A DNA stretch of 64,000 nt from a virus. The position numbers and the translations under genes were made by a program. Below the pieces are notes generated by a model. That model ran no database searches. It saw nothing but the letters and a program-made list of their open reading frames with translations, and was not told the origin of the DNA. The stretch covers positions 254,268 through 318,267 of the IMG/VR virus record IMGVR_UViG_3300022902_000004. One strand, given 5' to 3'. Each line of letters opens with the position of its first letter. Within the stretch, counting starts at the first letter, position 1. Shown piece by piece: positions 11,488 to 58,196 of the stretch.

Positions 11488-11666
11488 GATTTCGGGACCT
11501 CGACAGCGGCGAAGTGGCGATACGCACCAAATTTTGCGCTTTCAACGGCTTCATCGCGCAAGGCGAAGGGAAACCATACACGTGTGGAAAAATGTGGGGC
11601 ACGACCCTTAGGGCGCTCCTCAACACAAACCATCCAGCCGCAGCGACCAGCACCGATGATGACATA

Positions 11667-12119: not shown

Positions 12120-12183
12120 CACATCCTCCTTGTTGAATGTGCACCGACCAGGCAACCCCAGCCGATGCACACCCTCTCAATTC

Positions 12184-28899: not shown

Positions 28900-29514
28900 T
28901 TATTCGAACTCGTTGTCCAACGTTCCGCAGTGGATTCGAGTGTGGCATGAACTGCACACTGTCACCAGGTTTTCTACCGTGTTGTTCTTCTTGTTCATGT
29001 CTATATGGTGTACGAACAAAAGGAACTTCGAGCCATCATGGGAACACTTCCTACATTTGTGCCCATCACGACGTTTCACCGTGGTCCTGAGCGTAGTCGT
29101 GAACTCGAAGTCATAATCGGCAGCCCCTTCCTTTTCCCACGACCTGCCGTCAATCCAATGGCTGTTCTTTGGGCCCGAGACTCCTCGACCGATGGCTGCC
29201 CGATGTTCTGCGGTTAGCGGTATTCCTTTTTTCGCTTTACTCAGTTTACGCCTGGTCTCTTCCGAAACAGTTTTACCTAGGTGTGCTGCTGCAATGGCTT
29301 TTGACGCGCATTCAGGCGTGCAGCATTTGTTTTGACGCAGTTTGTCAGAACGCCTAACTTCGAACCCCTCTTTGCACCACACGCATATTTTCGTTGAGAC
29401 CTTTCCTTTCTTGTCTTTTGCGCCCCATCTTTTCAGGTTTGCACAAGTTTTAGAACAAAACCGACGTCCTTTGTTTACCACCTCAATGTTGCATCCAATA
29501 AATTCGCACTTCAT
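28900..29514 (-). CDS. HNH homing endonuclease with NUMOD3-like repeats
   Basis: C-terminal HHIDMNKKNNTVENLVTVCSSCHTRIH. Repeats ETRRKLSKAKKG and EHRAAIGRG. GGAGGA RBS. Confidence 0.8.
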   Translation of the reverse strand: MKCEFIGCNIEVVNKGRRFCSKTCANLKRWGAKDKKGKVSTKICVWCKEGFEVRRSDKLRQNKCCTPECASKAIAAAHLGKTVSEETRRKLSKAKKGIPLTAEHRAAIGRGVSGPKNSHWIDGRSWEKEGAADYDFEFTTTLRTTVKRRDGHKCRKCSHDGSKFLLFVHHIDMNKKNNTVENLVTVCSSCHTRIHCGTLDNEFE

Positions 29515-33446: not shown

Positions 33447-33857
33447 CTAAATTGTCATATCGATCTTGATGTAGTTGTTGGGAATGACGTGTTTGAGAAG
33501 CGTCCGGCAAGGCTCAGGGATCGCCCTGGCCACATGAGACGTTATCGGCAGTTCAAATTCCATTCCCGGGTACGGCTTGCATTTGTGTGTATCCAGTAGC
33601 TCACTGGCAATTGAACGTACCATACCATCCGGATCCGATTCGGCAATCGTTGTCATCATTGCTCTGATATCAATATCATTCATGAATTTTGCCATTCCAT
33701 ATAACGCCCCTTCTCGAACATATGATTTCTCATGGTGCAACGCTGGGCAACATATCTTCAACATGTATTCTTTACTTACCTTTGCCGATTCCTCTGCCTC
33801 AAATGATAGAGCGACCGGATTCGCGAAGATGGCTGTAAGATCCTTTGTTTCTTTCAT
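33447..33857 (-). CDS. hypothetical helical-repeat protein
   Basis: Trimmed to MKETKDLTAIF; ATGA overlap. Confidence 0.5.
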   Translation of the reverse strand: MKETKDLTAIFANPVALSFEAEESAKVSKEYMLKICCPALHHEKSYVREGALYGMAKFMNDIDIRAMMTTIAESDPDGMVRSIASELLDTHKCKPYPGMEFELPITSHVARAIPEPCRTLLKHVIPNNYIKIDMTI

Positions 33858-34600
33858 GGGTTCACCTCGATACAAAATCCTGGGTCATGTGCAGCAATCG
33901 CTAGGTCTTCATACCCGACGTATCCTCGAGGGTTCGAAACAATACGAGTCTCGCCAAGCATGTAATCGTTATGAGTATGCGTATGCCCATGAATCCATGC
34001 AGCAGGCGCTTTGTCCAAAATCAACCCAGACATGTCACAAACATAAAACATATTCTGCCACGACATTGGCCCGGACTTGTAGTCAGGATGGATGCTCAAA
34101 TCGCATGGAAGGTGATGTGTTACAACGACATCACCTTTCTTAACTTCATTCCTCAGGTACCCTCGAGTCGTGCTGTTTGCCTTGTAGATCCAATGGGATG
34201 CGCCTTTGATACGCTTAAAATCTGACCATGCTCTTTCGTACAATTGTGCCAAGCCGTCGCCCTTAAACCACATTGTGTTGCCAAGGAACCTAATGCCATC
34301 GATTTCGACGGCTGAATCAAGCAACCAATGAAAGTTTGAAAACTTTGCAGCCAGTTCTTCCATCGCAGCCTTGACAACATGGTACCCTTTTGCACCCCAG
34401 TATTCGTGGTTGCCTGTGACGTAGACGACGTGCGGAAACTTTTCACATGCAAATGCCAGGTTCTCGGTCAAGTAACCTGCTGTTCCCAGGTCACCGGCGA
34501 TGACGAGCACATCCCCATTCACTGGAATGTTTTTCCAGAATGCCTTGCCTCTGTCTGGGTGAAATTCAGTGTGCACGTCACTGATGATTTGAATCTTCAT
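33854..34600 (-). CDS. calcineurin-like metallophosphoesterase
   Basis: ISDVHTEF ... GDLG ... GNHE ... GHTH motifs. Trimmed to MKIQIISDVH. Confidence 0.75.
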   Translation of the reverse strand: MKIQIISDVHTEFHPDRGKAFWKNIPVNGDVLVIAGDLGTAGYLTENLAFACEKFPHVVYVTGNHEYWGAKGYHVVKAAMEELAAKFSNFHWLLDSAVEIDGIRFLGNTMWFKGDGLAQLYERAWSDFKRIKGASHWIYKANSTTRGYLRNEVKKGDVVVTHHLPCDLSIHPDYKSGPMSWQNMFYVCDMSGLILDKAPAAWIHGHTHTHNDYMLGETRIVSNPRGYVGYEDLAIAAHDPGFCIEVNP

Positions 34601-34660
34601 TTGTCTTCCTTCCATGGTCGTCCCGACCAATACGTTTATTATACCACAAATTCGTGTTTC

Positions 34661-35089
34661 TTACACGAGGGCAAAGTAAATCGAAGGAAGTAGGAACAAT
34701 ATGTGAATGAGCTGATCAATTGTAATGAAGAGAATTAGGTCCAACGGCCGACTAAATCCAGCCTTGAATGCCTTGATTCCATCCAAGCGCACCATTGGCA
34801 TCTTACGCACATATTTTGCCCAGAGATAGACAGGAATGTACGTGTCCTCAACAAAATGGGATGTGAATAGAATCAAAAAGCTGGCAACCAGCTCCGGAAC
34901 ACTCAACTCCATGAGCGCCAACAACGGCATGAAACCGGTGGCATAAATCAGGCAATGACGAGCCCGCCACTTCCAATCTGATGATTTCTTCATGGCTTCA
35001 TTGTGTGTCTGGAAAACCCAGTCTACAACGAAGTGATTGAATACGAGCAATGAAAACAGTGAGCCGGCAGCAATGAGTGTTTCAAGCAT
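34661..35089 (-). CDS. integral membrane protein (4 TM)
   Basis: Multiple hydrophobic helices. Confidence 0.55.
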   Translation of the reverse strand: MLETLIAAGSLFSLLVFNHFVVDWVFQTHNEAMKKSSDWKWRARHCLIYATGFMPLLALMELSVPELVASFLILFTSHFVEDTYIPVYLWAKYVRKMPMVRLDGIKAFKAGFSRPLDLILFITIDQLIHILFLLPSIYFALV

Positions 35090-35098
35090 TGTATGTCC

Positions 35099-35329
35099 TT
35101 ATGGTTTGCATTTGCAATTGTTACAATTTCCACATAAATCAGTATGATGGCGTTCCATATCGTGACAACGATGATTTGGGCCGTACGGCTCATATCGCGG
35201 AGGCTTATTCGGTTCAAGCACCGTCTTCACACCTGCCAAGACAACCAGCGCGGTGGCTACCACAGCAACCTGCACTTTCAATTGAATGTTCCGTATTAGT
35301 TTTCTCATTTGTTTCCTTATTACCATCAT
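35099..35329 (-). CDS. secreted/membrane-anchored Cys-rich small protein
   Basis: N-terminal TM/signal plus CGNCNNCKC. Confidence 0.45.
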   Translation of the reverse strand: MMVIRKQMRKLIRNIQLKVQVAVVATALVVLAGVKTVLEPNKPPRYEPYGPNHRCHDMERHHTDLCGNCNNCKCKP

Positions 35330-35357
35330 GACTGATTATAACACATTTCGTGCAGGA

Positions 35358-36095
35358 TTACACAGAGGAACCAAGAAACCTGAGCACACCCGATTTTATT
35401 GATGCAACGGATGAATCGAACGCCGCCTCAGACGCGTCGATGTAGAAAAAGTTCTCTTTGAACAGTTTTTCGTATGCCTCTCTGTTCCTTTCAACAGCTT
35501 TCCAAGACCGAATGACGTCCTCTTCATCCACACCTCGGCCACCTTGGGCAGCTCGGTTCACGTTCCTGGCCAACGACACTTCCAATGGAACATCGACATA
35601 AATCATGCCGACTTCATATCCAGCATTAGCAAACTCTTTGAACTGTTTTGAAATCTCTCTGTAGTTGCCACCGGTACCGTCAATCAAAACATTATCGCCG
35701 GTGCCCATGAGTGACTTTTTTAGGTGCTTGGCTGCATTGCGTGCCCGGGAGAACAGCGTCATATTCTGACTGAAGATGGCCCTGAGTCGACGGTATTCTG
35801 GCTCTGCATCGGACATTGCCTGTTCGTCACCAACTCCCTGGGCTTCCAAGAATGTTGCCTTGGCCAATTTGTATTCTTCAAGTAAGTCCTTTCTATCAAG
35901 CGGGATACCTGCCTTCTTGAGCGCCGCCTCATAATCGTCGTCCGGGTTGACTACAGTTAGCTGGCTTCCAATACCAAGTTTTCTAATTGCTGTTGATTTT
36001 CCAGATGCAGGTCCGCCGGCCATGAAAATAGCAGAAGGTTTGGCTTGGAGTGCCTCCCGGAGAACCCGTCGAATATATTGTCGTAGCATTTTCAT
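35358..36095 (-). CDS. P-loop nucleoside/polynucleotide kinase-like protein with CTS-like leader
   Basis: AIFMAGGPASGKSTAIRKLG Walker A; N-terminal MKMLRQYIRRVLRE. Confidence 0.65.
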   Translation of the reverse strand: MKMLRQYIRRVLREALQAKPSAIFMAGGPASGKSTAIRKLGIGSQLTVVNPDDDYEAALKKAGIPLDRKDLLEEYKLAKATFLEAQGVGDEQAMSDAEPEYRRLRAIFSQNMTLFSRARNAAKHLKKSLMGTGDNVLIDGTGGNYREISKQFKEFANAGYEVGMIYVDVPLEVSLARNVNRAAQGGRGVDEEDVIRSWKAVERNREAYEKLFKENFFYIDASEAAFDSSVASIKSGVLRFLGSSV

Positions 36096-36748
36096 AGGTC
36101 CACGTTTGCGTTTGTAATAAGCTTCCCAGCGACGCTCAGGGCACCAATCGTTGGGGTACCACTGGCATAGTATGCCTTGGACAATGAGCTGTTCAGGTAT
36201 TTCTGTTGCTCAGCTTTGCGCTTCTTTTCATCGTTGTGGAAAAGGCCCCACCAATTTGTTTGCATGTCGGCGTCGTCATCTGGTGTTTCTGTTTCGTGGT
36301 GGTCATAATCAGGCCGAAAGTCGAACTGTTTCTTTTCGATGTCATCACGGTTGTTCATGTAAAAGTTCCACACGTTGGTGGCATCCGGTGAGACAGAGGC
36401 TCTATCAGGTGTGAGCCCGAAGCCTTTCATACCAAGACGCTCCATGACAACATCATACAGCATCGGTCCCCAACTATGAGCTGCTTTGTGGCCAGTATTG
36501 ACCCGAGCAAGAATGACAGAATATGCTTTCATTTTCTTGGCGACTTCATCACCTGGTAGCAACTTTGCCGCCACAAACCCATTGATGTCGTCGCCTCGAT
36601 TGAATCGCTTGCCATCTTTGTCACAGTAAAATGCCCGGATGAAATCGCTGGCTTCAACAATCTTGACGTGCACTTCATCCGGCAGGTCATTCGGTCCTTT
36701 GGCAGATTCAGTCAGAACTTGCCTGACATAATTTTGTAATACGTTCAT
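36092..36748 (-). CDS. paralog family F protein (SWGPMLYDVVME motif) with CTS-like leader
   Basis: Trimmed to MNVLQNYVRQVLTE. Shares motif with 56845..57369 and 58853..59479. Confidence 0.55.
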   Translation of the reverse strand: MNVLQNYVRQVLTESAKGPNDLPDEVHVKIVEASDFIRAFYCDKDGKRFNRGDDINGFVAAKLLPGDEVAKKMKAYSVILARVNTGHKAAHSWGPMLYDVVMERLGMKGFGLTPDRASVSPDATNVWNFYMNNRDDIEKKQFDFRPDYDHHETETPDDDADMQTNWWGLFHNDEKKRKAEQQKYLNSSLSKAYYASGTPTIGALSVAGKLITNANVDL

Positions 36749-38499
36749 CACACATTTCCCATCATAATCTTCAGATGTTTCGCGCCTGACTTGCCAATTT
36801 TCCGGTAGTACCAACCATCTGAATCCGGCCCGAAGTTTCTGTTTGGGTGTGGTCCCAGCCATTCGATTGGTTTCTTGAGGATGGCACGAACCTTGGCTTC
36901 ATCTGTCACAGCGTTCACGCCTGCTTTGAATGCAAGCCATGCAGGTGCACCAGACGTCTCGACGAAGGTACCTTTCCTCTTCAGTAAGTCAAACATATGT
37001 TGAGATGTTGGGTTCTTGCCATCTGCACCATCATGCCCGCGACCACCGATCTTGAGGCGACCGTCTTTGTACTTGCCAAAAATGACACCGTCGGGTTGCG
37101 GATCTTCATCCACATCAACGGTATCGAAGAACTCGTAACCACCTGGTAAATCCTCAGGCTTTTTGATTTTGAGGTTGCCACCGATTGGGGCATATGCGGT
37201 TGAAATCAGGTCGAGAACCTCATCATCGATATCAACTTCTTTCCTGTGTACTGCGAGTTCTTCAGCAGGTACATCTTCCCATTTATTTTTAGGTACGCCC
37301 ATATCTGCGAACGTCTTTTCTAGCAGAATGTTCATACGAAGAAACGATTCAGTCAATGACTTGAACACGTCCACCTCAGCAGAGTGCATCGCCTGTCCAA
37401 TCTGGGGACCCTTCAATCCTTTTGCCATTAGTTCCTGTGGTCGGAGTGTTGGGGACCTCTGGACGAACTCCAGGAACCCTTGAACGAACTTCTCGGGCAT
37501 ACCGACTGCCAACGCAAACTCTTCCAGCTTTTCCGGAGGAACCCTAAGTCGCTTGAATTCTTTCTTCAATTTTGGTGAAGTGGACGCAACAATTCCAGGC
37601 AGATTCAATAGGAACTGAACCATCCCGGCCTCGTCGCTTGTGTACTTCATCTTCCGTAGGACCTTGGCAACTGCGCCCGGGTCGTTCCCCCAAAGAAGAA
37701 GGGCAACCTGAACATCGAAATGTTTCGAAGCAGGTGCTGCGTCGACTTCAAGTCCTGGGAAAATCTGTGGCCACAAACCTAGGTCACCAATGAGCCCCAG
37801 AAGGTGCTGCCCGTCGATTGCTGACTTGACTGCCTTAGCAAACTCGTCATGAATACGTTCTGGCGACACGCCTGATAGGTCGTTGTCTCGCTTGATTGCT
37901 GAGGCAGTTGTTTCATCCAAGTCGGAGCCTAGACGAGCAGCGAACCTGACAGCCCGCAGAATACGAAGCTTGTCCTCCCTAAATCGAAGGGCAGGATCAC
38001 CGACAGCGCGGATGACTCCATTCTTTACGTCCTCAATACCGCCAACGTAGTCGACCACCTCACCGGTTGTCAAGTCGTAGAAGAGAGCATTGATTGTAAG
38101 GTCACGACGGTTTACATCGTCCTCGATTGTAGTGAACTCAACAGAGTCAGGACGTCGGCCTTCACCAATGTCATTTCTGAACGTTGCAATTTCGTATTCC
38201 TCACCACCGACAGTTCGAACCCGAACAACGCCAAACGCCTTGCCAGTTAGATCGATGCGATGTGATGGGTCCTTTGAAACAATGTCGATGACACGTTGTG
38301 GTTCGGCACCTGTTGCAAGGTCGTAGTCCTTCGGGATTTTCCCGAGGAGTGTATCCCTGACGGCACCACCAACAACGTATAGCTCCTCACCAGCCTCCAT
38401 GAAGGCATCCAGGATCCCGCCCAAATCGGCAGGAGTCTGCAGGTGCATTTTCATTTTGATTGGGGCACGGTCCAGCATTTCAAGAATGTTTTGTTGCAT
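36748..38499 (-). CDS. cca: tRNA nucleotidyltransferase (CCA-adding enzyme / polyA polymerase family), 583 aa
   Basis: YVVGGAVRDTLLGKIPKDYDLAT head-domain signature. Long C-terminal extension. Confidence 0.8.
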   Translation of the reverse strand: MQQNILEMLDRAPIKMKMHLQTPADLGGILDAFMEAGEELYVVGGAVRDTLLGKIPKDYDLATGAEPQRVIDIVSKDPSHRIDLTGKAFGVVRVRTVGGEEYEIATFRNDIGEGRRPDSVEFTTIEDDVNRRDLTINALFYDLTTGEVVDYVGGIEDVKNGVIRAVGDPALRFREDKLRILRAVRFAARLGSDLDETTASAIKRDNDLSGVSPERIHDEFAKAVKSAIDGQHLLGLIGDLGLWPQIFPGLEVDAAPASKHFDVQVALLLWGNDPGAVAKVLRKMKYTSDEAGMVQFLLNLPGIVASTSPKLKKEFKRLRVPPEKLEEFALAVGMPEKFVQGFLEFVQRSPTLRPQELMAKGLKGPQIGQAMHSAEVDVFKSLTESFLRMNILLEKTFADMGVPKNKWEDVPAEELAVHRKEVDIDDEVLDLISTAYAPIGGNLKIKKPEDLPGGYEFFDTVDVDEDPQPDGVIFGKYKDGRLKIGGRGHDGADGKNPTSQHMFDLLKRKGTFVETSGAPAWLAFKAGVNAVTDEAKVRAILKKPIEWLGPHPNRNFGPDSDGWYYRKIGKSGAKHLKIMMGNV

Positions 38500-43995: not shown

Positions 43996-44856
43996 CTAAA
44001 TAGGCTCACGCTTAGCGCGCTTAGACCTATTTGGCATACTGTTTCTGCCCATAACCCATCCGACGCGAATGTTGCTTTCAACATCATCAATTGGAACCAA
44101 TTTATTGGCACCATCTTTTTTCATCCATTTTCTTGCTTTGGCAAATTGTGTTCGGCCCGGCTTCCAGCCTTTTTTCAAGTATTCATCAAACAACATGTTT
44201 TGTATTTGCTTGTTTACACCATTTTTACAAACCCATTTAAACGTTTTGCCAAAGTTAGGATTGTTTTCGCCAGTCATTAAATCAGATTGGCGTTGTTTTT
44301 GTTCGTTTGTTCTGGTCGTTCCAAACATCCCGTTCTTTTCGCCCATTAAAGATGCTGATCGTCTTGCAAGCATCACAATTTGTAATTCGTCTGCTTTTTC
44401 TTTGCCATATTTTTCAAGCCATACATCATAGCATCCGCGACCACGCATTCCATGGTTTTTTGATATTAATCGTTTCGTTTTTTCTGTGTGTTTTCTACCA
44501 TAAAAAGGGTTTCCTGTTCCACGAAATGAATCGGCAATTTCATTCAATGCAATATGCTTTTCATGATCAGATGCCAGATGTTGCACACCAAATCGCATTA
44601 ATGCAAAAACCATTTTTGATTTTTCAATGCCGACTAACATTTTTGTTAACAATCTATGAACTGCATAATGCTCAAGCACGGTTAACAAAACAAGATTTTC
44701 ACAGTCGTCGGTGCCACCTAATGATTTCGGTAAAATGTGATGATTATGATAATTGGCTACATCACTTCTTCGTCGACATGAGAGTTTTGCACTTTTAATT
44801 ATTTCATAATATTGGTGCGTTGAATCGTTATCAATAAACATTTTTGTTCGTCGCAT
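43996..44856 (-). CDS. HNH homing endonuclease with NUMOD-like repeats
   Basis: HHILPKSLGGTDDCENLVLLTVLEH; repeats NPFYGRKHTEKTKRLIS and NGMFGTTRTNEQKQRQS. Confidence 0.8.
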   Translation of the reverse strand: MRRTKMFIDNDSTHQYYEIIKSAKLSCRRRSDVANYHNHHILPKSLGGTDDCENLVLLTVLEHYAVHRLLTKMLVGIEKSKMVFALMRFGVQHLASDHEKHIALNEIADSFRGTGNPFYGRKHTEKTKRLISKNHGMRGRGCYDVWLEKYGKEKADELQIVMLARRSASLMGEKNGMFGTTRTNEQKQRQSDLMTGENNPNFGKTFKWVCKNGVNKQIQNMLFDEYLKKGWKPGRTQFAKARKWMKKDGANKLVPIDDVESNIRVGWVMGRNSMPNRSKRAKREPI

Positions 44857-44920: not shown

Positions 44921-45334
44921 TTAAATTGTCCCGTCACCATCGAAAAATGCCATGAGGCGTTTATTGTATGCACCGAATGGGCCGTTGTTAACCCAGGAAA
45001 CTGGAACCCAGGCAACCCAGCCTTCTTTCTTCAGGCGGATGCCTCGAAACTTGACAGGAACACGGCACTTATAGAAGTGCGACCTCTCGCGGTATGCTAC
45101 ATGACTGACGTACGGTTTTTGGAGTAAATCCAATGTGCTCAGCATGATTCCTGTTTCTTCGTACAGCTCTCTGACAGCGGCATAAATCGCATACTCACCG
45201 TCTTCGATCTTACCTCCTGGCAAGCCCCACTTGGTGCTGAAGATTCCCCGGGTTACTCCTAGAACGTAGTCTTCCTTTGTTGGATGGTAAATCAAGACAC
45301 CTGCGCTTTCCAGCGGTCGTCGTTTGTTTTTCAT
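44921..45334 (-). CDS. Nudix hydrolase
   Basis: Nudix box GLPGGKIEDGEYAIYAAVRELYEETG. Trimmed to MKNKRRP with a GAGAGGATGA RBS. Confidence 0.8.
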   Translation of the reverse strand: MKNKRRPLESAGVLIYHPTKEDYVLGVTRGIFSTKWGLPGGKIEDGEYAIYAAVRELYEETGIMLSTLDLLQKPYVSHVAYRERSHFYKCRVPVKFRGIRLKKEGWVAWVPVSWVNNGPFGAYNKRLMAFFDGDGTI

Positions 45335-45350
45335 ATCATCCTCTCTTCGT

Positions 45351-45440
45351 TGGTGTACCCGCCCGGAGTCGAACCGGGGTGTTGAACGCTTCAATTTCAT
45401 GTCATTCACAAGGTTATCCGGTTCTTCTCAACCGGCAAGT
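45351..45440 (-). tRNA. tRNA-like element (canonical T-arm and ACCA 3' end; 5' half not foldable by eye) - possibly degenerate
   Basis: Minus strand ...CCCGGTTCGACTCCGGGCGGGTACACCA-3'. No matching acceptor 5' strand found. Followed by ~350 nt without ORFs. Confidence 0.3.
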
Positions 45441-45787
45441 CTGCCTATAAAACACCCGTCCCGTTCTAGACACTGGGACCCACCTGGCGAGCCAGGGAAC
45501 CATTTAGCAACCATTTTTATCTCAATGCGGTAAAACATCCAGCCAATTTTGGGTATCAAGGTAGTTGGCCACCTCGCAATTATGCAGCTTGTGCGTAAGA
45601 GTACTCCGAGTTATCGTTAGCAATTATCATTTCAGCGTTTTTACGAAGCCGCGCTGCCCTTCGCCTTGCACATTCAATATTATTCGCCCAATCGAAACCA
45701 GTTCGGGCACATTGTTTGTCAAATTCTCCTATGTTCAGCGACGTTTCATCGCCCTCAATATAAGTATAATCATTTTGCGAAAGATGT

Positions 45788-46420
45788 TCACAGGCCTAGC
45801 TTCTTCAAGCGAGAGATTGTGTCCTTACTCTGTCCAGTTACATGCAGGATTGCGATTCCTCCTGCTTCCTGCCACTCCTTGATTGTTCGAGGTTTGTCGT
45901 CAATCAAAACATTCGGCACACCATCAGTTGTAGCGTAATTCTGCTTTGCAGCAGCCCTCGTGCAGATAACCTCCTTTGCTTCTGGGCTCAAATTCGAGCG
46001 GGCCCAGACGACCTTTCCAGATTCAGCAGAAGTGCCAGAGCGGTGAGAAATGCCAGCAGTAAGCAATCGAACAGTTCGGCCACGTGTGACCAGGAATGGC
46101 CAAAGCAACTCAACTCCGTCAGCCTGCTTTCCAAGTCCTGCGAACCATGCACCCGGGTCCCGGCCAATCAGGAAAAACATCAAATTACGAACCGACTTGT
46201 AATTCAAGTCATCCTCAGTCGATGTCCTGAAATCTGGACCCAGCTCCTTCAGCACCTTTCGGTATGCTCGTGCCTGCCCGACACTCAGGAACTCCTTCTC
46301 AACACTCGATGCGTTGTCCAAGAATTTATTCACATCGGCGATTGCAGTCGATACAAAATCAACGATCACTCCGTCCATGTCACAGTAAATATCAGACCTA
46401 GTATCCAGCTTCACACTCAT
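45788..46420 (-). CDS. HAD-superfamily 5'(3')-deoxyribonucleotidase-like protein
   Basis: CDMDGVIVDF motif I; ~210 aa. Confidence 0.65.
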   Translation of the reverse strand: MSVKLDTRSDIYCDMDGVIVDFVSTAIADVNKFLDNASSVEKEFLSVGQARAYRKVLKELGPDFRTSTEDDLNYKSVRNLMFFLIGRDPGAWFAGLGKQADGVELLWPFLVTRGRTVRLLTAGISHRSGTSAESGKVVWARSNLSPEAKEVICTRAAAKQNYATTDGVPNVLIDDKPRTIKEWQEAGGIAILHVTGQSKDTISRLKKLGL

Positions 46421-47303: not shown

Positions 47304-48320
47304 TTATATCTCCAAAGGTGATGCCGACCAAATGATCTCATTCAATGACTGACTGCATGATTGGCGCAAAAACTCCCCAACGATAAACTTGAAAGTGTGA
47401 AATTCCTTAATCACAGTAATGAGCTGCCCGTCCTTGTAAAGATTGAAGACACCGACCTCCTCGAAGACATCGCTTTTGTTCATTATCAACGTGTTGACAC
47501 CATTTACGTTTACTGCCTTGATAAGGTTGTCGACGTCCAGCCAATTTGTCTGTCGTGGACGTCCCGTAGTAGCTCCAAACTCGTTGCCAACCTTTTGCAG
47601 TTCATACAACGCAGGCTCTTTACCCTGAAACGCCTTGGCACCGACGTATGTTTCGTATGGCTTGGCCACACCGTACACCTTCTTGATTGCCTGCGGTGGG
47701 ATGCCCGCCATGACAGCTCCGGCGGTGGTGCAGGTTGCAGACGTGACGTATGGATAGTCTCCCCAGTCGACATCGAGATAGAAGCCTTGGGCTCCCTCCA
47801 TTAGGACATTGACATCGGCCTCATTTGTATGAAGTTCCTTGTATTCGTCAATCAAGTAAAGCCCGAGACGCCAGTCTTCCTCAGCACATGTGCCAACACG
47901 ACTGACCTTATCACGATACGCAGGACCATTCCCTGTCTTGGTCGTACCGATTCGGGATTCACCTGCTTCCTCTTCGACATGTTCGGGTGTCACCAAGTGT
48001 GCCTTTTCAGATACACGGAGAAGATCAACCATCTCAATTCCAGCAGCCGCAAGCTCAGATATTTCATTCATCAGCTTTTTGGTGTCGACAACACAGCCTC
48101 GACCAATAATCGATTTCAGCCCGCGGAACACACCGGCTGGCACCAGGTGGGTGACAAATTTCTTCCCTTCGTGGTAGATTGTGTGGCCTGCGTTGGAGCC
48201 TCCACTGAATCGCATGACATGGGTATAGTTTCCCTTCTTCGCCAGCGAATGAACAACCTTTCCTTTGCCGCAGTCGCCACTTTGGCAGTCTACAACAACA
48301 TCTGCTGATAGTTTACTCAT
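47304..48320 (-). CDS. purA: adenylosuccinate synthetase family protein, short archaeal-type (PurA or PurZ)
   Basis: QSGDCGKGKVV and GGSNAGHT P-loop signatures; TKTGNGPAY; YLDVDWGDYPYVTS; GTTGRPRQTNWLD. 338 aa. Confidence 0.85.
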   Translation of the reverse strand: MSKLSADVVVDCQSGDCGKGKVVHSLAKKGNYTHVMRFSGGSNAGHTIYHEGKKFVTHLVPAGVFRGLKSIIGRGCVVDTKKLMNEISELAAAGIEMVDLLRVSEKAHLVTPEHVEEEAGESRIGTTKTGNGPAYRDKVSRVGTCAEEDWRLGLYLIDEYKELHTNEADVNVLMEGAQGFYLDVDWGDYPYVTSATCTTAGAVMAGIPPQAIKKVYGVAKPYETYVGAKAFQGKEPALYELQKVGNEFGATTGRPRQTNWLDVDNLIKAVNVNGVNTLIMNKSDVFEEVGVFNLYKDGQLITVIKEFHTFKFIVGEFLRQSCSQSLNEIIWSASPLEI

Positions 48321-48328
48321 TTTTTCCT

Positions 48329-49213
48329 TTATAAGATTTGTTTGAAATCGTTTATGTCAATTTGTTTTTTCGCGTTTCGCTTGTTTATAATAAAACAAAA
48401 CGTTTTGTTGTTCAGTTTACAATAATCTGTTGCCGCGGCGTTCTTTGCCATGACTTTATCTTTTTGTTTGTCATACCAATATGTGCTTTTTATTTCGACA
48501 AGCTTATTTCCATTTGTTGTTTCAACTTCAAAATCTACAAAATAATGATGAATGGTACCATTATATGCGTATTTTATTGTCGGCCCATTATGGACACGAA
48601 TATTATTACTTTCACAAAATTGAACAAATTTTTGTTCATATGATCCTTGCACCGCAATCGTGTCATCAAATTTTGTAACATAGCGTTTTGACAATGCCCG
48701 GCCACCTCCATTGCATGCTGCCCGATTTGCTATTTCATTATCATGCATTACATTTTCAACGCCATATCGTTCCATAACGACCTTTTTTATTTTTTCTTTG
48801 ATTTCTTGAGACTGTCCGGGATATTCTACACCGTAATTTTTTAGCATTGTTTGCTTTTTCTTTTCTTTGACTTCTTGAGCCTGTGATGGGTTTTCAACAC
48901 CATACTTTTCTAAATTGCTAGCAATGATTCTTTTTTTGATTTGTTTTGCAGCAAAGACATTCTTAACGCCATATCGGTCTAAAGTCGTTTGCTTTCTTTT
49001 CTCGTTAGCTTGACTTGCTTTCGCCTTAATCGACTTTCCTGATCTTTGGCGGCGTCCTGGGTTTGCATCGCAGCACGCTCGCGAGCAAAAATGATAATTT
49101 GCGCTCATACAAGCTTTTCTATACATTCTTTTGAATTTTATGTTGCATGTTTCACATTGCAGTAGCAATGTACGTTTTGGTGGGGCAGTCTTGTGTAGTA
49201 TTTTTATGAACAT
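48329..49213 (-). CDS. homing-endonuclease-like protein: zinc ribbon, tandem YGVxNP repeats, PD-(D/E)xK-like C-terminus
   Basis: Repeats YGVKNVFAAK, YGVENPSQAQ, YGVEYPGQSQ, YGVENVMHD. HYFVDFEVETTNGNKLVEIKS. Strongly AT-rich island. Confidence 0.65.
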   Translation of the reverse strand: MFIKILHKTAPPKRTLLLQCETCNIKFKRMYRKACMSANYHFCSRACCDANPGRRQRSGKSIKAKASQANEKRKQTTLDRYGVKNVFAAKQIKKRIIASNLEKYGVENPSQAQEVKEKKKQTMLKNYGVEYPGQSQEIKEKIKKVVMERYGVENVMHDNEIANRAACNGGGRALSKRYVTKFDDTIAVQGSYEQKFVQFCESNNIRVHNGPTIKYAYNGTIHHYFVDFEVETTNGNKLVEIKSTYWYDKQKDKVMAKNAAATDYCKLNNKTFCFIINKRNAKKQIDINDFKQIL

Positions 49214-51557: not shown

Positions 51558-52967
51558 TTAACCCCACGTGTTCTTGCGGACTTCGTCCAGCGTGTAATCC
51601 TGTGTCACCTCACCATCCTCAAACACCGTCTCGAGCAGGTCAGCATCTGATGCCGAAGACTCCGGAACGGTCATGATTTTATTTCCGTCTCTACCTGTCA
51701 TTGCAACCAAGGCATGTCGGCCCGGCTTCGAGCGCTTACCTGGAGCATCAATCGGATCCTTGAACACGTCTCGGCCTTCACCATTTACGCTAATCCAAGA
51801 ACACTTGAATGCAAACTTCTGGGTGTCACGGTTCATCTTCTGGAGCAAGGCTCCTCCTGACCCGAATGCGATATTATCGGCACTCCAACCAGCAGCCATG
51901 ATTGCATCAAGAATCTGGGAAATCACAAAGCGGTCAACTCCATCCCCTTGGATGATACGCACGTGAGGATCTAAGACCTTGTAACCTTTCTTGTTGGTGG
52001 TAAATCCAAAGGCCTCCCCAAGACGCTCCAGACACTCCAGGACAACACTCTGTGGGTCTCCTGAGTCCGGCCGTACGACCAGCGTTCCATCTCGAGCCAG
52101 GATTTCTGCTTTCAGTTCCTGACCCCACAATTCTGAGCACGCTTTGTAAATGTCGTAGCTATCTGAAACGCATGCAACCAGTCCGGTTGGGTATTGCTCC
52201 AGCATGTTTCGAAAGGCATTGACCTCGCCTTCCTTTCCCCACGATGTAATTGTCGAGTGCTCACTGGCTGGAATGCTGAATCCTGCCATTTGAGTGTTGT
52301 AGTGGTTCCTGGCCAATACCAAGGCTGCCACCGTATCTGTTCCCATGAAGTTGACAAGGTGACCGAAGCCACCGATGCCTGCAGTTTCAACAGACGACAC
52401 ACCACGGAAACCGAAGTCGTGCAGTTTGAAGTAGATGCCTGCTGGTGTTCCGGATTTCTCCAGTGCCGCAGCAATAATCAACCGGCTGGCCCGACTAATC
52501 GTTGCCACGGTGCACGGGTACCAAACCTGAACCAGCAAGGTCTCGAGGTAATTGGTCAACCACCAACACTTCGGGTCTGTATTCTCAATCGTCAACATCA
52601 CGTTGTGGGTCGGAACAACTGTTCCTTCCCTGACCGCTTTGATTCTGACGGGCAACCGCCCATCATGCTCATTGAGAATGTGCTCCCAGCCTTCTCGGTT
52701 GAAACACGTATCGTTGCCGAAATGCAGATGGAAGAATTCCTCTGCTTCGTCGATGCGTTCCTGTGTTACGACCTGTCCCTCGAGGTATTCCTGCAAGAAG
52801 TACTGCAGTCCCACGAAGACAACATCGTCGAATTCACCGCCGCGACTCTCAAAGTAGGAGTAAACGGTCTCAGTTCCCTCAGGATATTGCTTGGAATGTG
52901 ATACCTTGTATGAATCTGTCATCAAGATAATGTTTTTTGGATCGATGTTCTTGTTGTAGTAGCTCAT
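51558..52967 (-). CDS. nadV: nicotinamide phosphoribosyltransferase (NAMPT)
   Basis: 469 aa with NAPRTase-family motifs (GTDTVA..., FGFRGVSS). AAGAGGTGAAAGC RBS. Confidence 0.85.
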   Translation of the reverse strand: MSYYNKNIDPKNIILMTDSYKVSHSKQYPEGTETVYSYFESRGGEFDDVVFVGLQYFLQEYLEGQVVTQERIDEAEEFFHLHFGNDTCFNREGWEHILNEHDGRLPVRIKAVREGTVVPTHNVMLTIENTDPKCWWLTNYLETLLVQVWYPCTVATISRASRLIIAAALEKSGTPAGIYFKLHDFGFRGVSSVETAGIGGFGHLVNFMGTDTVAALVLARNHYNTQMAGFSIPASEHSTITSWGKEGEVNAFRNMLEQYPTGLVACVSDSYDIYKACSELWGQELKAEILARDGTLVVRPDSGDPQSVVLECLERLGEAFGFTTNKKGYKVLDPHVRIIQGDGVDRFVISQILDAIMAAGWSADNIAFGSGGALLQKMNRDTQKFAFKCSWISVNGEGRDVFKDPIDAPGKRSKPGRHALVAMTGRDGNKIMTVPESSASDADLLETVFEDGEVTQDYTLDEVRKNTWG

Positions 52968-53968
52968 GCTTTCACCTCTTTCTTCGATGTGATCTTCACT
53001 TTCTTCGGGGACAGTCTTGTACGTTCCTTTGGCATGTTTTTTTCAATGTGCTCCACTAGTGCATTGCAAAGCGGAACGTGCTCATCGCAAACGAAATTTG
53101 AAATCGTTGACGGCAAAACATCCAGTCCACACTTAAGCCTTTCGATTTTGACCCATTCGACTTCGTACAAATCATCTGTCGCCTCAATGGGTCCCCACAA
53201 GTACACACCGGTGAAAAACACAGTCGTGATTTTATCCTGACGTCTTCGATAGCGCCAGTCGTCGATAACGAAAGAGCCAATGTATTTGAGTGGCTTGCTC
53301 ACCTCAATGTTCCCACCGGTTTCCTCGTTGAATTCTCGGAGAGCTCCTTGCTCATGGGTTTCTCCGGGCTGCAAAAAGCCGCCAGGGAACCGTAGCTTGG
53401 CACCTTCATACTTACGACCCATCAAGACTTCATTCGTCTTGTAGTTGATGACAGCCATGTCGGTCGTGCCATACGCAGTCGGGTAACGATTGTATGAACC
53501 GTAAATGACACCGCGGCGGAAGTCGATTGAACCGTTGGCACGTAGTGCTGCTTCGGCTCGAACCTGTGTTCCGCTGATGTAAATCTTCTGCTCCAACTCA
53601 ACGGTTGGGAAGACACCATGGTATCGCAACATGAAGCTGTCTCGGCTACCGTAAAGGGTAACATCTCCAACAGGACACACTTCTCGAATCTTCTTGTCTA
53701 AGAGGGCAGACCAGGGCTTGTCGAATTCTTGGTCTGAAATTGGTAGAACAATAATCTCAGGGTACTTTTCCTGAATCATCTTTTTTCGTAGATCGTAATC
53801 CAGTGGATTCCTTTTGTCTCCCAAACCGGGACAAATCCCGAGGAACACGATCACTTTGTTGTGGGTCTCAGCCACTTCATCCAGAACACCAACGTGTCCT
53901 GCATGCAACTCCGGAATCTGAAATCTCCCGACCACGACTCCAATCTCACGCTTTTTATTATCACTCAT
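52964..53968 (-). CDS. natV: bifunctional NMN adenylyltransferase / Nudix ADP-ribose pyrophosphatase
   Basis: N-terminal GRFQIPELHAGH nucleotidyltransferase motif; C-terminal Nudix box GGFLQPGETHEQGALREFNEETG. ATGA overlap with nadV. Confidence 0.85.
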   Translation of the reverse strand: MSDNKKREIGVVVGRFQIPELHAGHVGVLDEVAETHNKVIVFLGICPGLGDKRNPLDYDLRKKMIQEKYPEIIVLPISDQEFDKPWSALLDKKIREVCPVGDVTLYGSRDSFMLRYHGVFPTVELEQKIYISGTQVRAEAALRANGSIDFRRGVIYGSYNRYPTAYGTTDMAVINYKTNEVLMGRKYEGAKLRFPGGFLQPGETHEQGALREFNEETGGNIEVSKPLKYIGSFVIDDWRYRRRQDKITTVFFTGVYLWGPIEATDDLYEVEWVKIERLKCGLDVLPSTISNFVCDEHVPLCNALVEHIEKNMPKERTRLSPKKVKITSKKEVKA

Positions 53969-54112: not shown

Positions 54113-55147
54113 CTATGCTCCGTGCGGTTTATTCTCCTGCTGAGTTGCAGATGAAACCTTCACAAACTCGTGGCGTTCATACAACTCCGGTACTGTTCGT
54201 GCTCCTGAGTATGACAGGCCACTTCGAATCCGCGCCGCGAAGGGTTTCATTACACTAGCAACAGATCCCTTTGGATCAATCATCGCTGTGGTACCTTCAA
54301 TGTATTGTGGGTCCTTGTCACCAGGCTTCTTACGGCGATGCTGGGCAACATTAGATGCCATACCTTCATACGCGATCTTGCCATTCCATGTTCCACCGTT
54401 TGGGCACTCATTCGTTCCTGCGAGAACAGATCCAAGCATCACAAAGCTTGCACCGGCGGCGAGGGCCTTTACAGCGTCACCACTGTTTCGAATGCCACCG
54501 TCTGCAATAATGGGTGCCTCGCTGCGGGATATTTTGACACGACAAACAGACTCAAGCGTCGGCAACCCGTGACCGGTTACAACCCGAGTGGTGCAAACAC
54601 TTCCTCCACCGATGCCAACACGAACCATATCAGCACCTGCTTCATAAAGAAACTCAGCACCAGCTGCTGTGGCAACGTTGCCAGCAATGATCAGAATTTT
54701 ATCACCAAACTCATCCCGTAATCGGTGAATTGCGTCTTTAACATTCTTATGATGTCCATGGGCTACATCGATTAGGAAAATCTTTGTCCCACATAATTCG
54801 TATGCTGCTTTGGCACGTACAAAAAAGTCCCCTGTCGCGCCAATTGCAACTCCGTATAGCGGAGCAGTCACTTTGCGAATGATGTCTAGCTGTTCCTCAA
54901 CGGTATTGTAACGATGGATAATACCCATCCCACCGCAATCACCCAAGGCATTGCACATCTCGTCTTCACAAATCGTTGTCATCGGCGCCGCAATGACGGG
55001 AAGATACAAATAACCAAACCCTCGAGGCAGGCCAGCACCAATCACAATGTCATCCCTCGAGGGGATCGATGATTTGCGTGGTACCAGAAGTACATCATCA
55101 AAACAAATTGTGTCATACGCAAATGCGTTATGTGCATATCGTGTCAT
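54113..55147 (-). CDS. GMP reductase / IMP dehydrogenase family protein lacking CBS domains (GuaC-like)
   Basis: FDDVLLVP and GIGGGSVCTTR catalytic loop. ~344 aa, trimmed to MTRYAHNAF with a GGAG RBS. Confidence 0.75.
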   Translation of the reverse strand: MTRYAHNAFAYDTICFDDVLLVPRKSSIPSRDDIVIGAGLPRGFGYLYLPVIAAPMTTICEDEMCNALGDCGGMGIIHRYNTVEEQLDIIRKVTAPLYGVAIGATGDFFVRAKAAYELCGTKIFLIDVAHGHHKNVKDAIHRLRDEFGDKILIIAGNVATAAGAEFLYEAGADMVRVGIGGGSVCTTRVVTGHGLPTLESVCRVKISRSEAPIIADGGIRNSGDAVKALAAGASFVMLGSVLAGTNECPNGGTWNGKIAYEGMASNVAQHRRKKPGDKDPQYIEGTTAMIDPKGSVASVMKPFAARIRSGLSYSGARTVPELYERHEFVKVSSATQQENKPHGA

Positions 55148-55148
55148 A

Positions 55149-56054
55149 TTACTTATCTCCCCATGATTTTGTTCGCAAGTGAATCGAGAACAGCTTTGCA
55201 GCTCGAGCACCAATTGCTTTCCTTACCTCTCGGGTTGGCTCAAACTCGCCTTCACCTTCGATCATGACATCTTCGATCATTGCAGGAATGATTTTCTGCA
55301 TGTCAGCGTAACCCACATCTTGCGGGAACTTGTCAAGCACATGCTCCAGGCGCATATCGGTAACCCACTCTTCAGCAATTGCTTGGGCGCCATTCAGCTT
55401 CTTCCTTGCATCGGGATCCAAGATGGTGTCACCTTTCGATGCCCGCTCAGAAAACTCAGCAGTCTTGTGTTTTGCCATCAGTCGCTTACCGCTCGGCATT
55501 GCAACCTCTTCGATTGGCCGGAGCACGACACCTTCAGATACTTTATCCTCGATGATACCTCGGCGTTTGGCAACCCGAGACGGTTTATCTCGTTCAATCG
55601 TGACTGCCGCAAGGTTGGCTGGGATCCGTTCATATGGAACGAACTCAAGCCCAAACTTAAGGACAAACTCTTCAGCCCGAGGAACAGGCAACCATTCATT
55701 GCCGAGTTTGACTTCAAATGCGATGAAGAGTAGTTTTGGTCCATATGTGTGCGACATTTTCTGTTGAGCGCCGCCATATGCCTCACCGAAAATGGTTACA
55801 TCAGCATGCCCAAGCTCGTGAAAGATGTCAATGAGTCCTTGCTGATAAAACAAGTCGGTGAACTCTTGATGCTTCGACCCGCCAGAAAAGAATCGCAATA
55901 CGGCATTGTTCTTATTCTTCGGTGTCTTGTTGGTATAACGGATATGTGCCGATGTGCCATGAACTTTCTCCATGGCATAACACTCCTTGAAAAGCAGGAT
56001 GTTTTGGTCTTTGTATAGATTTGAGATCTTGGCGTATCCAATAATGTCCCCCAC
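55149..56054 (-). CDS. rnl2: RNA ligase, Rnl2 family (probable GTG start)
   Basis: Motif I EKVHGTS (T4 Rnl2 KIHGTN). ~300 aa. Confidence 0.75.
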   Translation of the reverse strand: MGDIIGYAKISNLYKDQNILLFKECYAMEKVHGTSAHIRYTNKTPKNKNNAVLRFFSGGSKHQEFTDLFYQQGLIDIFHELGHADVTIFGEAYGGAQQKMSHTYGPKLLFIAFEVKLGNEWLPVPRAEEFVLKFGLEFVPYERIPANLAAVTIERDKPSRVAKRRGIIEDKVSEGVVLRPIEEVAMPSGKRLMAKHKTAEFSERASKGDTILDPDARKKLNGAQAIAEEWVTDMRLEHVLDKFPQDVGYADMQKIIPAMIEDVMIEGEGEFEPTREVRKAIGARAAKLFSIHLRTKSWGDK

Positions 56055-56844: not shown

Positions 56845-57369
56845 TTACTTTTCTAATAGTTTCTTCATTGATTTGAGTTTTTTCAATGTTGTTGGAGGTT
56901 TTGTCCAGCACATGCCAAGAGCGGGAGTGTCTGAGAATTCGCCGACCTCATCAATATTCGTTCCAGTCACATCCGGGCGGTAATCACGGTAGTGGTTCCA
57001 TACATTTTGGGCTTCATCTGAAACTGGGTCGCGGTCGGCCATGAGCCCATCGCCTTCCTTTGTGGCATACTCCATGGCGACATCGTATAGTAACGGTCCC
57101 CATGATTTTGATGCCCTGACGAAGTTTATCATCCAGACGTTCCCGGCGATATCATGCATCGTTTCTACTGATGCCGGTGGGTCAATGTACATCTCGCCGA
57201 GGGGTGTTCCGCCATGATCGATGGGCTTCTTTGATTTGTCGCTGTAGTAAATGTGTACACCGTACTCATCCATTGCAGACGAGTCAATGGTGATATACAC
57301 ATCGTCTAGGTCATTGATACCGACGGCACGCTCGAGGAGTATTTCAATGTATTCACGGAGGAGCTTCAT
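56845..57369 (-). CDS. paralog family F protein (SWGPLLYDVAME) with CTS-like leader MKLLREYIEILLE
   Basis: Motif shared with 36092..36748 and 58853..59479. Confidence 0.55.
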   Translation of the reverse strand: MKLLREYIEILLERAVGINDLDDVYITIDSSAMDEYGVHIYYSDKSKKPIDHGGTPLGEMYIDPPASVETMHDIAGNVWMINFVRASKSWGPLLYDVAMEYATKEGDGLMADRDPVSDEAQNVWNHYRDYRPDVTGTNIDEVGEFSDTPALGMCWTKPPTTLKKLKSMKKLLEK

Positions 57370-58196
57370 ACCAATTGAGCCCTCAGTTTTGTCTTTGGGT
57401 ATTTGCCCGCCAGTGCGGCGACGGCTTTTATGTTCTTCGCTGAGTCATCTATAAAGTAAATGTCGTCATGGCCGTTGTTGATTTTTTCTTCAATCCAGTC
57501 TGCTTTGACTTGCGGGTCTGAATTGCCTAGCGTCACCAATTCGATGCTGCTTGTATCTATACCAATGTCTTCTAGGAAATCAAGTATTCCTATCCTTGCG
57601 GCATCACCTCGAGCAGTCAAAATCACCACATGCCTGCCTTGGCTTCCGGCTGCCAAAACCCTGCGAAGGATTTTCATGTGCCCCTTGATTGCCTGCGGGT
57701 TTTTGAGGGCACCACCAAATTGGCTATAGTCGAATTCGTCACCTTTGACAGGTTTATAGATCGACCACTCGGCTGGCGTCTGTTCTATCGTCTCACCGGA
57801 TGCCTTGTTCAAGATGATCATTGAATCGGTCATCGCCAGCGTATCATCAAAATCAAAAACCCTTAGCTTTCTTTCGGTAAGCATTTTTTGCTCTACTAGA
57901 TTGCCGAACCGAGAAATATCTTTCGCCGAAACCCAATAGTGTCGTTCGCCATCAGGAAATTCGTCGTCTAAGTTTGCATATTGCTCAGGTATTTCAATTG
58001 CCACAAGCTCATTTCCATAATCATTCGTTGCTTCGCCATTAGGACTTGTTGAAAAATAAACCTCTGTTCCAAAACCCGTTTTTATCTTCGAGGTAAAACC
58101 ATTTCGCTGTATCGCGGCGGCGTTGTTCGTTCGATGGTACAGCAATAGCGTTTTTTCTGCAAGTAGCATCCCAATATATTCGCGGAGGAGTTTCAT
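57366..58196 (-). CDS. two-domain protein: unknown N-terminal domain plus HAD-like phosphatase (DxDxT), CTS-like leader MKLLREYIGMLLAE
   Basis: VFDFDDTLAM motif I; ATGA overlap. Confidence 0.6.
   Translation of the reverse strand: MKLLREYIGMLLAEKTLLLYHRTNNAAAIQRNGFTSKIKTGFGTEVYFSTSPNGEATNDYGNELVAIEIPEQYANLDDEFPDGERHYWVSAKDISRFGNLVEQKMLTERKLRVFDFDDTLAMTDSMIILNKASGETIEQTPAEWSIYKPVKGDEFDYSQFGGALKNPQAIKGHMKILRRVLAAGSQGRHVVILTARGDAARIGILDFLEDIGIDTSSIELVTLGNSDPQVKADWIEEKINNGHDDIYFIDDSAKNIKAVAALAGKYPKTKLRAQLV

Follow-up and report, generated by a model that had tools for sequence, protein, structure and literature searches.

The window analysed here, a 64,000-nucleotide stretch of the IMG/VR virus record IMGVR_UViG_3300022902_000004 (positions 254,268 to 318,267), carries on its minus strand a gene for a short adenylosuccinate synthetase (PurA). 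A preliminary description had left undecided whether this purA gene encodes a canonical PurA or PurZ, the phage homolog belonging to the 2-aminoadenine (Z-base) pathway. Very probably it is a PurA of reduced size and canonical chemistry, linked to a probable reductase of guanosine monophosphate (GMP) in a proposed phage purine shunt. The gene is intact and under selection, its residues are PurA-type, it falls on the PurA side of the phylogeny, partners of the Z pathway are absent from the sequence examined, and its linkage to an enzyme of the IMP dehydrogenase/GMP reductase family (IMP, inosine monophosphate) recurs in related loci. The decision for PurA follows from the residues, the tree, the score against the PurZ model and the missing Z-cluster partners. 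It is the residue evidence and the absence of partners together that remove the Z-genome reading, which is rejected here: the enzyme is ordinary, and it is the phage lineage carrying it that is undescribed.

The open reading frame (ORF) at 47304..48320 on the minus strand is complete, with an ATG start and a product of 338 amino acids (aa), and a motif resembling a Shine-Dalgarno sequence comes right behind the stop codon of the gene upstream (Table 1). The protein matches the Pfam family PF00709 (Adenylsucc_synt) at 2.9e-78, with 263.9 bits against a gathering cut-off of 27. When compared with an 85%-identical homolog from a different metagenome, the gene has a dN/dS of 0.082 (dS ~1.4). Because the ORF is intact, the family match is strong and dN/dS is this low, purA is a functional gene under strong purifying selection. 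The short homolog with P-loop and IMP-site signatures that had been described from inspection is confirmed, the motifs being the P-loop, N38/H41, EGAQG and NKxD together with the loops IGTT..GPAY and GATTGRxR.

Residues, phylogeny and fold of the phage PurA

PurA and PurZ differ at a small set of residues for which published data exist. Asp13 (Escherichia coli numbering) is found in 99% of PurA proteins, while the same position is Ser in 100% of 147 phage PurZ/PurZ0 proteins (PMC12884076). In S-2L PurZ, the residue at the Asp13 position (S23) and T273 and Q308 are PurZ-specific substrate contacts, and R303 of PurA, which touches the 2'-oxygen of IMP and the aspartate, has equivalents in PurZ that are withdrawn (PMC8342488). 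In PhiVC8 PurZ, S14, F12 and T262 make room for the 2-amino group, and F295 and Y298 form the ATP pocket (10.1101/2025.10.22.683976). The phage protein (the query) was aligned with E. coli PurA, PhiVC8 PurZ, S-2L PurZ and Ghobes PurZ0, all taken from annotated records, and every discriminating residue in it is of the PurA type. Its P-loop reads QSGDCGKGK, against QWGDEGKGK in E. coli and Q[FY]GS..KG in PurZ; the later loop reads GATTGRPRQ, against GATTGRRRR in E. coli and TTVT(K/N) in PurZ; and the guanine-specificity motif is NKSD, against TKLD in E. coli and NFCN or NFAQ in PurZ. The query also carries IGTTKTGNGPAYRDK, which is PurA-like, GPAY being missing from PurZ, and NAGHT around N38/H41. 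In its own numbering the sites are D16 (E. coli D13), K19, N43, H46, T126-T127, R141 (E. coli R143) and Q178, followed by GATTGR254 (E. coli R303), R256 and N281-K282-S-D284.

These residues are hardly variable among relatives. D13, K16, N38 and H41 are invariant in 121/121 family members, as are K331 and D333, the last two also being present in 88 of the 91 related loci. The contacts to IMP and aspartate, namely T128/T129, R143 (supplied by the dimer partner), Q224, V273 and T300/T301/R303/R305, are all kept in the query and are invariant or nearly so in the family. D13, T128, P135, V238, G298, T300, G302, R303, K331 and D333 are PurA-type and invariant or nearly so in the 121-member alignment, and the three PurZ/PurZ0 references depart from the family at every one of these ten positions. 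The P-loop Asp is found in all 83 related loci with a readable motif. A library clustered at 50% identity was also examined: of its 140 representatives closest to the query and not shorter than 300 aa, 139 have Asp at position 13, one has Glu and none has Ser.

Profile scores, tree and fold were compared as well. The NCBIfam PurZ model NF038379 gives 135 bits and so does not reach its cut-off of 300. Among sequences in the PDB, the best bacterial PurA scores 187 bits, Pyrococcus horikoshii PurA 125, and PurZ/PurZ0 62-75. In neighbour-joining trees the group of PhiVC8 PurZ, S-2L PurZ and Ghobes PurZ0 was split from all other sequences, including the query and E. coli PurA, in 100/100 bootstraps, and the PurZ clade kept a support of 98/100 after P. 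horikoshii PurA and Archimedes PurZ0 had been added. Placement with PurA rather than PurZ, which the preliminary description had named as the outcome that would speak against PurZ, is thus what the trees return (98-100/100). The AlphaFold (AF2) model of the query has a pLDDT of 90.6 and a pTM of 0.91, and Foldseek ranks PurA structures at the top (E 3.5e-27, TMq up to 0.85), then P. horikoshii PurA, with PurZ/PurZ0 last (E 1e-19 to 1e-15). The fold alone has no discriminating power, as PurA, archaeal PurA and PurZ all give TM values of 0.73-0.85, but the ranking agrees with the residues.

Partners of the Z pathway were sought with six-frame phmmer, using as queries PhiVC8 DatZ and DpoZ, S-2L DatZ, MazZ and PrimPol, and Ghobes gp48-gp55 (including those that resemble Dut and NDT). 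Neither the 64-kb window nor any of nine related loci gave a match at E <= 1, although with single sequences as queries, and with Pfam run on the 50 largest window proteins, a very divergent small partner could escape. The Pfam search of these 50 proteins gave no HD/YfbR-like, MazG, DUF550, DUF5664, dUTPase or PolA domain, so that the failure to see DatZ or MazZ in the window by eye is borne out. The sequence around 91 relatives, 1.4 Mb in all, likewise gave no match to DatZ, MazZ, DpoZ, DutZ, DmtZ, DUF550 or DUF5664. In some relatives a dUTPase adjoins purA, and no Dut was found in the window by six-frame phmmer. The possibility that the adjoining enzyme is DutZ-like was considered and rejected: the relatives' proteins score 105.5 and 106 and pass the cut-off of the canonical dUTPase model TIGR00576 (102.55), while the Dut-like gp55 of Ghobes, at 89.7, fails it.

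Some observations weigh against a canonical PurA. The query is no textbook PurA in that it lies below every NCBIfam PurA equivalog cut-off, the best being NF002223 with 267 against 402 bits, and the archaeal-type PurA model NF003295 gives 172 against 368. These low scores are explained by two deletions, since the matches arrive as two strong stretches. The trees were built by neighbour-joining from simple distances with 100 bootstraps, and P. horikoshii is represented in the enlarged one by residues 6-281 only. The search of the phage's own sequence for Z partners covered 64 kb of a genome that is probably much larger, in which more distant genes are possible. Finally, in the query Cys replaces E14 and Ser replaces W11; the close subfamily has Cys or Thr at position 14 and never Trp11, and PurZ deviates at these positions too.

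As a PurZ-like signature, the changes at positions 11 and 14 were rejected, since neither position is constant in full-length PurA representatives, of which 29/51 have W and 47/51 have E. Most short forms keep E14. The changes are treated here as a quirk of the subfamily, which also has the fixed differences G8D, G276K and G308N from full-length PurA.

The linked barrel enzyme and a putative purine shunt

In this phage lineage, a gene for an enzyme of the IMP dehydrogenase (IMPDH)/GMP reductase (GMPR) family lies 6 kb upstream of purA; its true start is probably the ATG at ~55147 (MTRY...), as in a relative. Such a GMPR-like gene is found within 10 kb of purA in 18/91 loci. At least 12 more distant loci, with a PurA of only 51-58% identity to the query, have purA, dut and the GMPR-like gene on one strand in a cassette of ~3-6 kb. 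purA and the GMPR-like gene stay together in two distinct arrangements, which speaks for a functional connection.

Which reaction the linked enzyme catalyses depends on a few features of its active site. The protein keeps the Cys-Thr (GSVCTT) and the Glu (LAGTNEC), and its flap has 24 residues, compared with 23 in GuaC and 30 in GuaB. The window protein, which has an extra deletion ahead of the flap, shows a gap opposite the Arg-Tyr segment of IMPDH (DRYF), and the dyad segment is gapped in all 18 purA-linked homologs. GMPR is known to have no Arg418-Tyr419 dyad and a truncated flap, since hydrolysis of E-XMP* must be avoided, and substitutions of Arg418 slow hydrolysis ~1000-fold (PMC2525682). 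Based on the truncated flap and the missing dyad, GMP reductase is the somewhat favoured assignment of the neighbour.

Overall similarity counts against this assignment, for which the flap is the one argument. The IMPDH model TIGR01302 gives 222.7 bits (cut-off 481.5) and so exceeds the GMPR model NF003470 with 179 (cut-off 397), all curated cut-offs being missed; in the PDB, the IMPDH 5upy scores 222 bits and classical GMPR 134; and the PHROG 9582 label says only "dehydrogenase". The phage PurA could then be canonical and the barrel an IMP dehydrogenase, in which case both branches out of IMP, towards AMP and towards GMP, would be boosted and G would not be turned into A. We consider this unlikely, as the Arg-Tyr segment is gapped and the flap has the length of that of GuaC in the window protein and the 18 purA-linked homologs, the loss of Arg418 has the effect on hydrolysis given above, and absence of the dyad marks GMPR. 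IMPDH-like GMP reductases are also known: the Trypanosoma enzyme 6lk4 scores 200 bits to the window protein, and there is a GuaB1-type NCBIfam model (NF052358).

If the neighbour is a GMP reductase, a simple scheme can be proposed. The phage PurA would convert IMP, aspartate and GTP (guanosine triphosphate) to adenylosuccinate, which host PurB would then turn into adenosine monophosphate (AMP); no PurB-sized lyase is found in the window. The neighbour would run from GMP to IMP and so feed PurA, and the pair would in this way shift guanine nucleotides into the adenine pool during infection. A nicotinamide phosphoribosyltransferase (NAMPT) and a fusion of nicotinamide mononucleotide adenylyltransferase (NMNAT) with Nudix are encoded nearby, and this pair consumes ATP (adenosine triphosphate) for nicotinamide adenine dinucleotide (NAD), which fits a local theme of adenine supply. 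The phage PurA may be regarded as a miniaturised auxiliary metabolic gene that has lost two peripheral regions and kept the known catalytic and ligand contacts. More tentatively, and with rather less confidence than in the PurA assignment, the two genes may form an undescribed module in large uncultured aquatic phages, in which a convergently miniaturised PurA of bacterial lineage, reduced to ~335 aa separately from the archaeal/PurZ lineage, and a GMP-reductase-type enzyme with neither CBS subdomain nor dyad would take guanine nucleotides set free in the infection from GMP to AMP with the help of host PurB and so supply ATP, dATP and, here, NAD salvage. Apart from the PurZ papers, the literature search did not find phage purA as an auxiliary metabolic gene or a pairing of purA with guaC. 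Canonical PurA in phages is already known (metaGPA preprint, 10.1101/2025.10.22.683976), and it is the size and coherence of the short family, its apparent convergent reduction and the GMPR-type linkage that seem to be undescribed in the literature searched. The recurrent linkage points to a possible phage strategy of purine pool rebalancing.

There are two further alternatives, both of which concern PurA itself. It is very unlikely that the protein is a PurA-fold enzyme of shifted specificity, acting, for example, on dIMP or another 6-oxopurine nucleotide or using another nucleoside triphosphate, in an unknown phage pathway. Scores under all curated PurA cut-offs, the change of E14 to C/T with the loss of W11, the three fixed differences, and the HAD or dUTPase gene adjacent in some relatives would agree with it, but the known ligand residues, those for IMP (R303 at the 2'-OH among them) as well as those for aspartate, Mg and guanine, do not vary, positions 11 and 14 vary in full-length PurA, and the two deletions explain the low profile scores. 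Still more improbable is a PurZ/PurZ0-type enzyme that makes N6-succino-2-amino-dAMP from dGMP for a Z genome, with neighbouring genes replacing DatZ and MazZ: for it speak the size class and the deletions as in PurZ, the annotation of the matching PHROG family, T/C at 14, no Trp11 and Asp8 as in some PurZ, and a Nudix and a deoxyribonucleotidase-like HAD gene nearby, and against it the retention of Asp13 where all known phage PurZ/PurZ0 have Ser, the retention of G298 and R303 where PurZ has T and K/L, the PurZ model score at less than half its cut-off, a PurZ clade that excludes the query, and the lack of Z-cluster genes in the window and around 91 relatives, whose Dut is canonical. A role of the neighbouring Nudix, HAD and GMPR-like genes as stand-ins for DatZ and MazZ is not upheld, given the PurA-type residues, the PurA-side tree and the absence of any Z partner from the sequence examined; these genes fit ordinary purine and NAD pool management better.

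Distribution of the family and gene content of the window

A search of a large protein database with the query returned 5,948 proteins at E <= 1e-20, and the best 120 of these 5,948 are all 326-356 aa long and 51-100% identical to it. Relatives are encoded on at least 586 IMG/VR viral contigs, which are up to 261 kb long, and their gene contexts are phage-like and vary between lineages. When the 9-kb purA neighbourhood was compared with 50,697 GenBank phage records by megablast there was no match, and with tblastn the best match in these records has 40.5% identity and comes from a 735-kb uncultured megaphage. A fold search of BFVD gave no close viral counterpart, the best being a giant-virus PurA with 28% identity. 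The short PurA family is abundant in uncultured, largely aquatic, large phages and is without a representative among isolates. As there is no cultured relative, host and taxonomy are without an anchor. In a scan of cellular genomes, only four contigs of metagenome-assembled genomes (MAGs) were found, with 51-54% identity to the query: a 116-kb contig of the Pelagibacter sp. TMED166 MAG (L011), one from Parcubacteria (L012) and two from Gammaproteobacteria (L013 and L014). These may be mis-binned phage contigs or prophages and tell little about donor or host. A PurA that is ~36% identical to the query is also found in two very short GenBank entries, the 7.5-kb OR849879.1 (Staphylococcus phage SA 1298 Kay) and the 5.5-kb OR847116.1 (Listeria phage LM 4-11-1), which may be fragments of host DNA instead of phage genes.

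The family matters for the prediction of Z genomes. It is a large family of PurZ size (at least 586 IMG/VR contigs, thousands of metagenomic proteins) that is PurA-type at the discriminating residues, so length alone is unfit for inferring a Z genome, while the Asp13/Ser test separates cleanly. Short PF00709 proteins are easily miscalled as PurZ, and the family would be useful as a negative control. As an example, PHROG 1211, which is annotated "2-aminooxy adenylosuccinate synthetase", matches the query at 8.4e-69. The PHROG 1211 label and many GenBank phage records mix PurA-type with PurZ-type proteins, and such labels could spread false Z-genome calls.

The whole window is transcribed from the minus strand and has a negative GC skew throughout. 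Minus-strand ORFs cover 87% of it, many of them small and without a family match; the window belongs to the accessory part of a large phage genome. Read in transcriptional order, the GMPR-like gene is followed by NMNAT-Nudix, NAMPT, small ORFs, a homing endonuclease and purA, and after purA come two ORFans, the HAD gene, a transfer-messenger RNA (tmRNA), the Nudix gene, an HNH endonuclease and a lysin. The Nudix, HAD and IMPDH/GMPR family neighbours named in the preliminary description are all present, and its list omits the homing endonuclease, the tmRNA and the NAMPT/NMNAT-Nudix pair. The HAD protein has no Pfam or NCBIfam match, and homologs of it are found in only 3/91 loci. The real start of the Nudix gene is probably further downstream, as the GTG-start ORF overlaps the tmRNA. 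The Nudix hydrolase and the HAD nucleotidase may shape nucleotide pools, and nothing links them specifically to purA.

Table 1. Coordinates of features in the window and, where a locus is named, in related loci
Feature	Position	Strand	Remarks
MoxR-type AAA_5 ATPase	12184..13302	-	Pfam
HNH-NUMOD endonuclease gene	28900..29514	-	
VWA-like/DUF2201 putative metallopeptidase	29573..30907	-	Pfam
Genes with RNA-repair/quality-control flavour	33854..38499 and 57366..58196	-	
HNH-NUMOD3 endonuclease gene	43996..44856	-	Overlaps lysin ORF start
Nudix hydrolase	44921..45409	-	Weak MutT-like similarity; GTG-start ORF overlaps tmRNA
tmRNA	45351..45710	-	Rfam RF00023, 92 bits against gathering score 47; tag ANDNSEYSYAQAA
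HAD-type protein	45788..46420	-	210 aa, DMDGV motif; phrog_2643 "5'-3' deoxyribonucleotidase", 6.6e-17
purA	47304..48320	-	ATG-to-stop ORF, 338 aa, PF00709
AAGGA Shine-Dalgarno-like motif	48325..48329	-	Read from sequence, 5' of purA ATG
Homing-endonuclease-like gene	48329..49213	-	DUF7487 repeats, TnsA-like nuclease N-terminal domain; 8 bp upstream of purA
NAMPT	51558..52967	-	Pfam
NMN adenylyltransferase-Nudix fusion	52964..53968	-	Family match; acts with NAMPT in NAD salvage
IMPDH/GMP-reductase family (beta/alpha)8 enzyme	54113..55213	-	PF00478 at 2e-84, no CBS subdomain
MVP-shoulder/Band-7 protein	62172..63734	-	520 aa; Major Vault Protein shoulder 2.1e-21, Vault_3 repeat, SPFH/Band-7
tmRNA, L004	14937..15296		
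tmRNA, L007	16837..17149		
tmRNA, L027	20663..20968		
tmRNA, L048	18721..19045		
RNA ligase and TROVE/Ro60-like protein, L004	3005..3898 and 11406..12746		
purA-dut-GMPR-like cassette			L031, L062, L067, L078, L079, L082, L086, L088, L092, L095, L097, L098

The window has three homing-endonuclease-like genes, of which the one abutting purA and the HNH-NUMOD3 gene look like recent insertions beside conserved genes, because both are absent from the otherwise syntenic locus L004. On a 53.6-kb contig with an 85%-identical PurA, the gene order is kept, the two endonucleases are missing and a TROVE/Ro60-like gene follows purA. The phage-encoded tmRNA between the HAD and Nudix genes is full-length, and its tag is identical in the syntenic relative; of the 15 related loci scanned, 4 have a tmRNA gene with a differing tag at a distance of up to 10 kb from purA.

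Other genes of the window include a GH25 lysin with a peptidoglycan-binding domain and DenV. Beside the tmRNA, two regions have an RNA-repair or quality-control flavour, with genes for a 583-aa protein resembling CCA-adding enzyme/poly(A) polymerase, a kinase of the zeta-toxin/AAA_33 type, a metallophosphoesterase and a PNK-like HAD protein (phrog_415); L004 has an RNA ligase and a protein resembling TROVE/Ro60 in addition. The MVP-shoulder/Band-7 protein is unusual for a phage and has no PHROG match. MoxR-type ATPases and VWA proteins usually work together in pairs; here the two genes are 16 kb apart.

Comparison with known enzymes

Bacterial PurA is the closest known system. The E. coli structures 1ade/1cg0 and those from Yersinia (3hid), H. 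pylori (9f17) and B. anthracis (4m9d) have the same fold as the query (TMq 0.79-0.85), and the catalytic and ligand residues D13, K16, N38, H41, T128/T129, R143, Q224, V273, GATTGR303xR305 and K331/D333 are common to both. Bacterial PurA also gives the highest sequence score (187 bits), has 42% identity to the query across the core and stands on the query's side of the PurA/PurZ split. It differs in having ~430 aa with E14/W11, whereas the query has 338 aa with C/S at these positions, is phage-borne and lies under the NCBIfam cut-offs. PurZ (PhiVC8 6fm1, S-2L 7odx) and PurZ0 (from the Gordonia phages Ghobes and Archimedes, 7vf6) resemble the query in superfamily, fold, size and being phage-encoded. 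They have Ser13, TTVT(K/N) and N-F-x-(N/Q) where the query has Asp13, GATTGR and N-K-x-D, are 23-29% identical to it and form a separate clade. PurZ genes lie in Z-clusters with DatZ/MazZ or DutZ/DmtZ, none of which is found near the query or its relatives.

Canonical PurA on phage contigs has been seen before. In the metaGPA preprint, 14 of 17 PF00709 proteins on aquatic phage contigs that behave as unmodified dA DNA cluster with E. coli PurA (10.1101/2025.10.22.683976). Like the family described here, these PurA-clade proteins come from aquatic phage contigs, with DNA that is canonical by restriction sensitivity, and they are probably the same group or an overlapping one. In the preprint such proteins served only as the negative class for PurZ residues, and neither the short architecture nor the GMPR-like linkage was found described there. 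For the linked barrel enzyme, GMP reductase GuaC has in common with it the barrel, the lack of the CBS subdomain, the Cys-Thr and Glu residues and the truncated flap without the dyad, but its sequence scores are lower than those of IMPDH catalytic domains. A CBS-less protein from Legionella pneumophila, 3r2g, can be aligned with the window protein from end to end (213 bits), has the GMASxxAQ flap in common with it and has no Arg-Tyr dyad. The name under which it was deposited, "IMP dehydrogenase", may be a misnomer of the same kind.

The short architecture itself has a counterpart in archaea. With 338 aa, the phage PurA is ~94 aa below E. coli PurA (432 aa as translated), close to the ~100 aa estimated in the preliminary description, and it does belong to the size class of PurZ (343-363 aa). 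The difference comes from an internal deletion, in which the equivalent of E. coli 147-217 is reduced from 71 to 27 residues, and from the C-terminal region, in which the equivalent of E. coli 340-431 is reduced from 92 to 48. In the 50%-identity representative library both regions shrink stepwise, with intermediates of 360-400 aa present, and there is a gradual passage from the short forms to full-length ones of ~400-440 aa. The library carries no names, and the latter are presumably bacterial-type PurA. P. horikoshii PurA (PH0438, PDB 5k7x/2d7u) is in the same length class and aligns collinearly with the phage PurA. Its internal deletion is equal in place and size, with 35 residues from the R143 equivalent to EGxQG against 34 in the query, the fold match is full both ways (TMq/TMt 0.81/0.81) and both have Asp13. 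Over the same columns, however, it is 32.6% identical to the query, compared with 42.0% for E. coli PurA, its bit score is lower (125 against 187) and it reads TVTGR where the query has ATTGR. In the neighbour-joining tree, with one partial archaeal sequence, it joins PurZ/PurZ0 apart from the query (97/100), which agrees with the published archaeal origin of PurZ. The label "archaeal-type" that had been given to the gene is therefore correct as regards size and where the internal deletion lies, and fails for lineage. As the tree puts the query with bacterial PurA and P. horikoshii with PurZ, the most economical reading on the available sequences, drawn from neighbour-joining trees and one partial archaeal sequence, is that a PurA of bacterial type appears to have been shortened independently in phages, in convergence with the archaeal/PurZ lineage. 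The family also provides a natural minimal PurA, showing which parts of the bacterial enzyme are dispensable.

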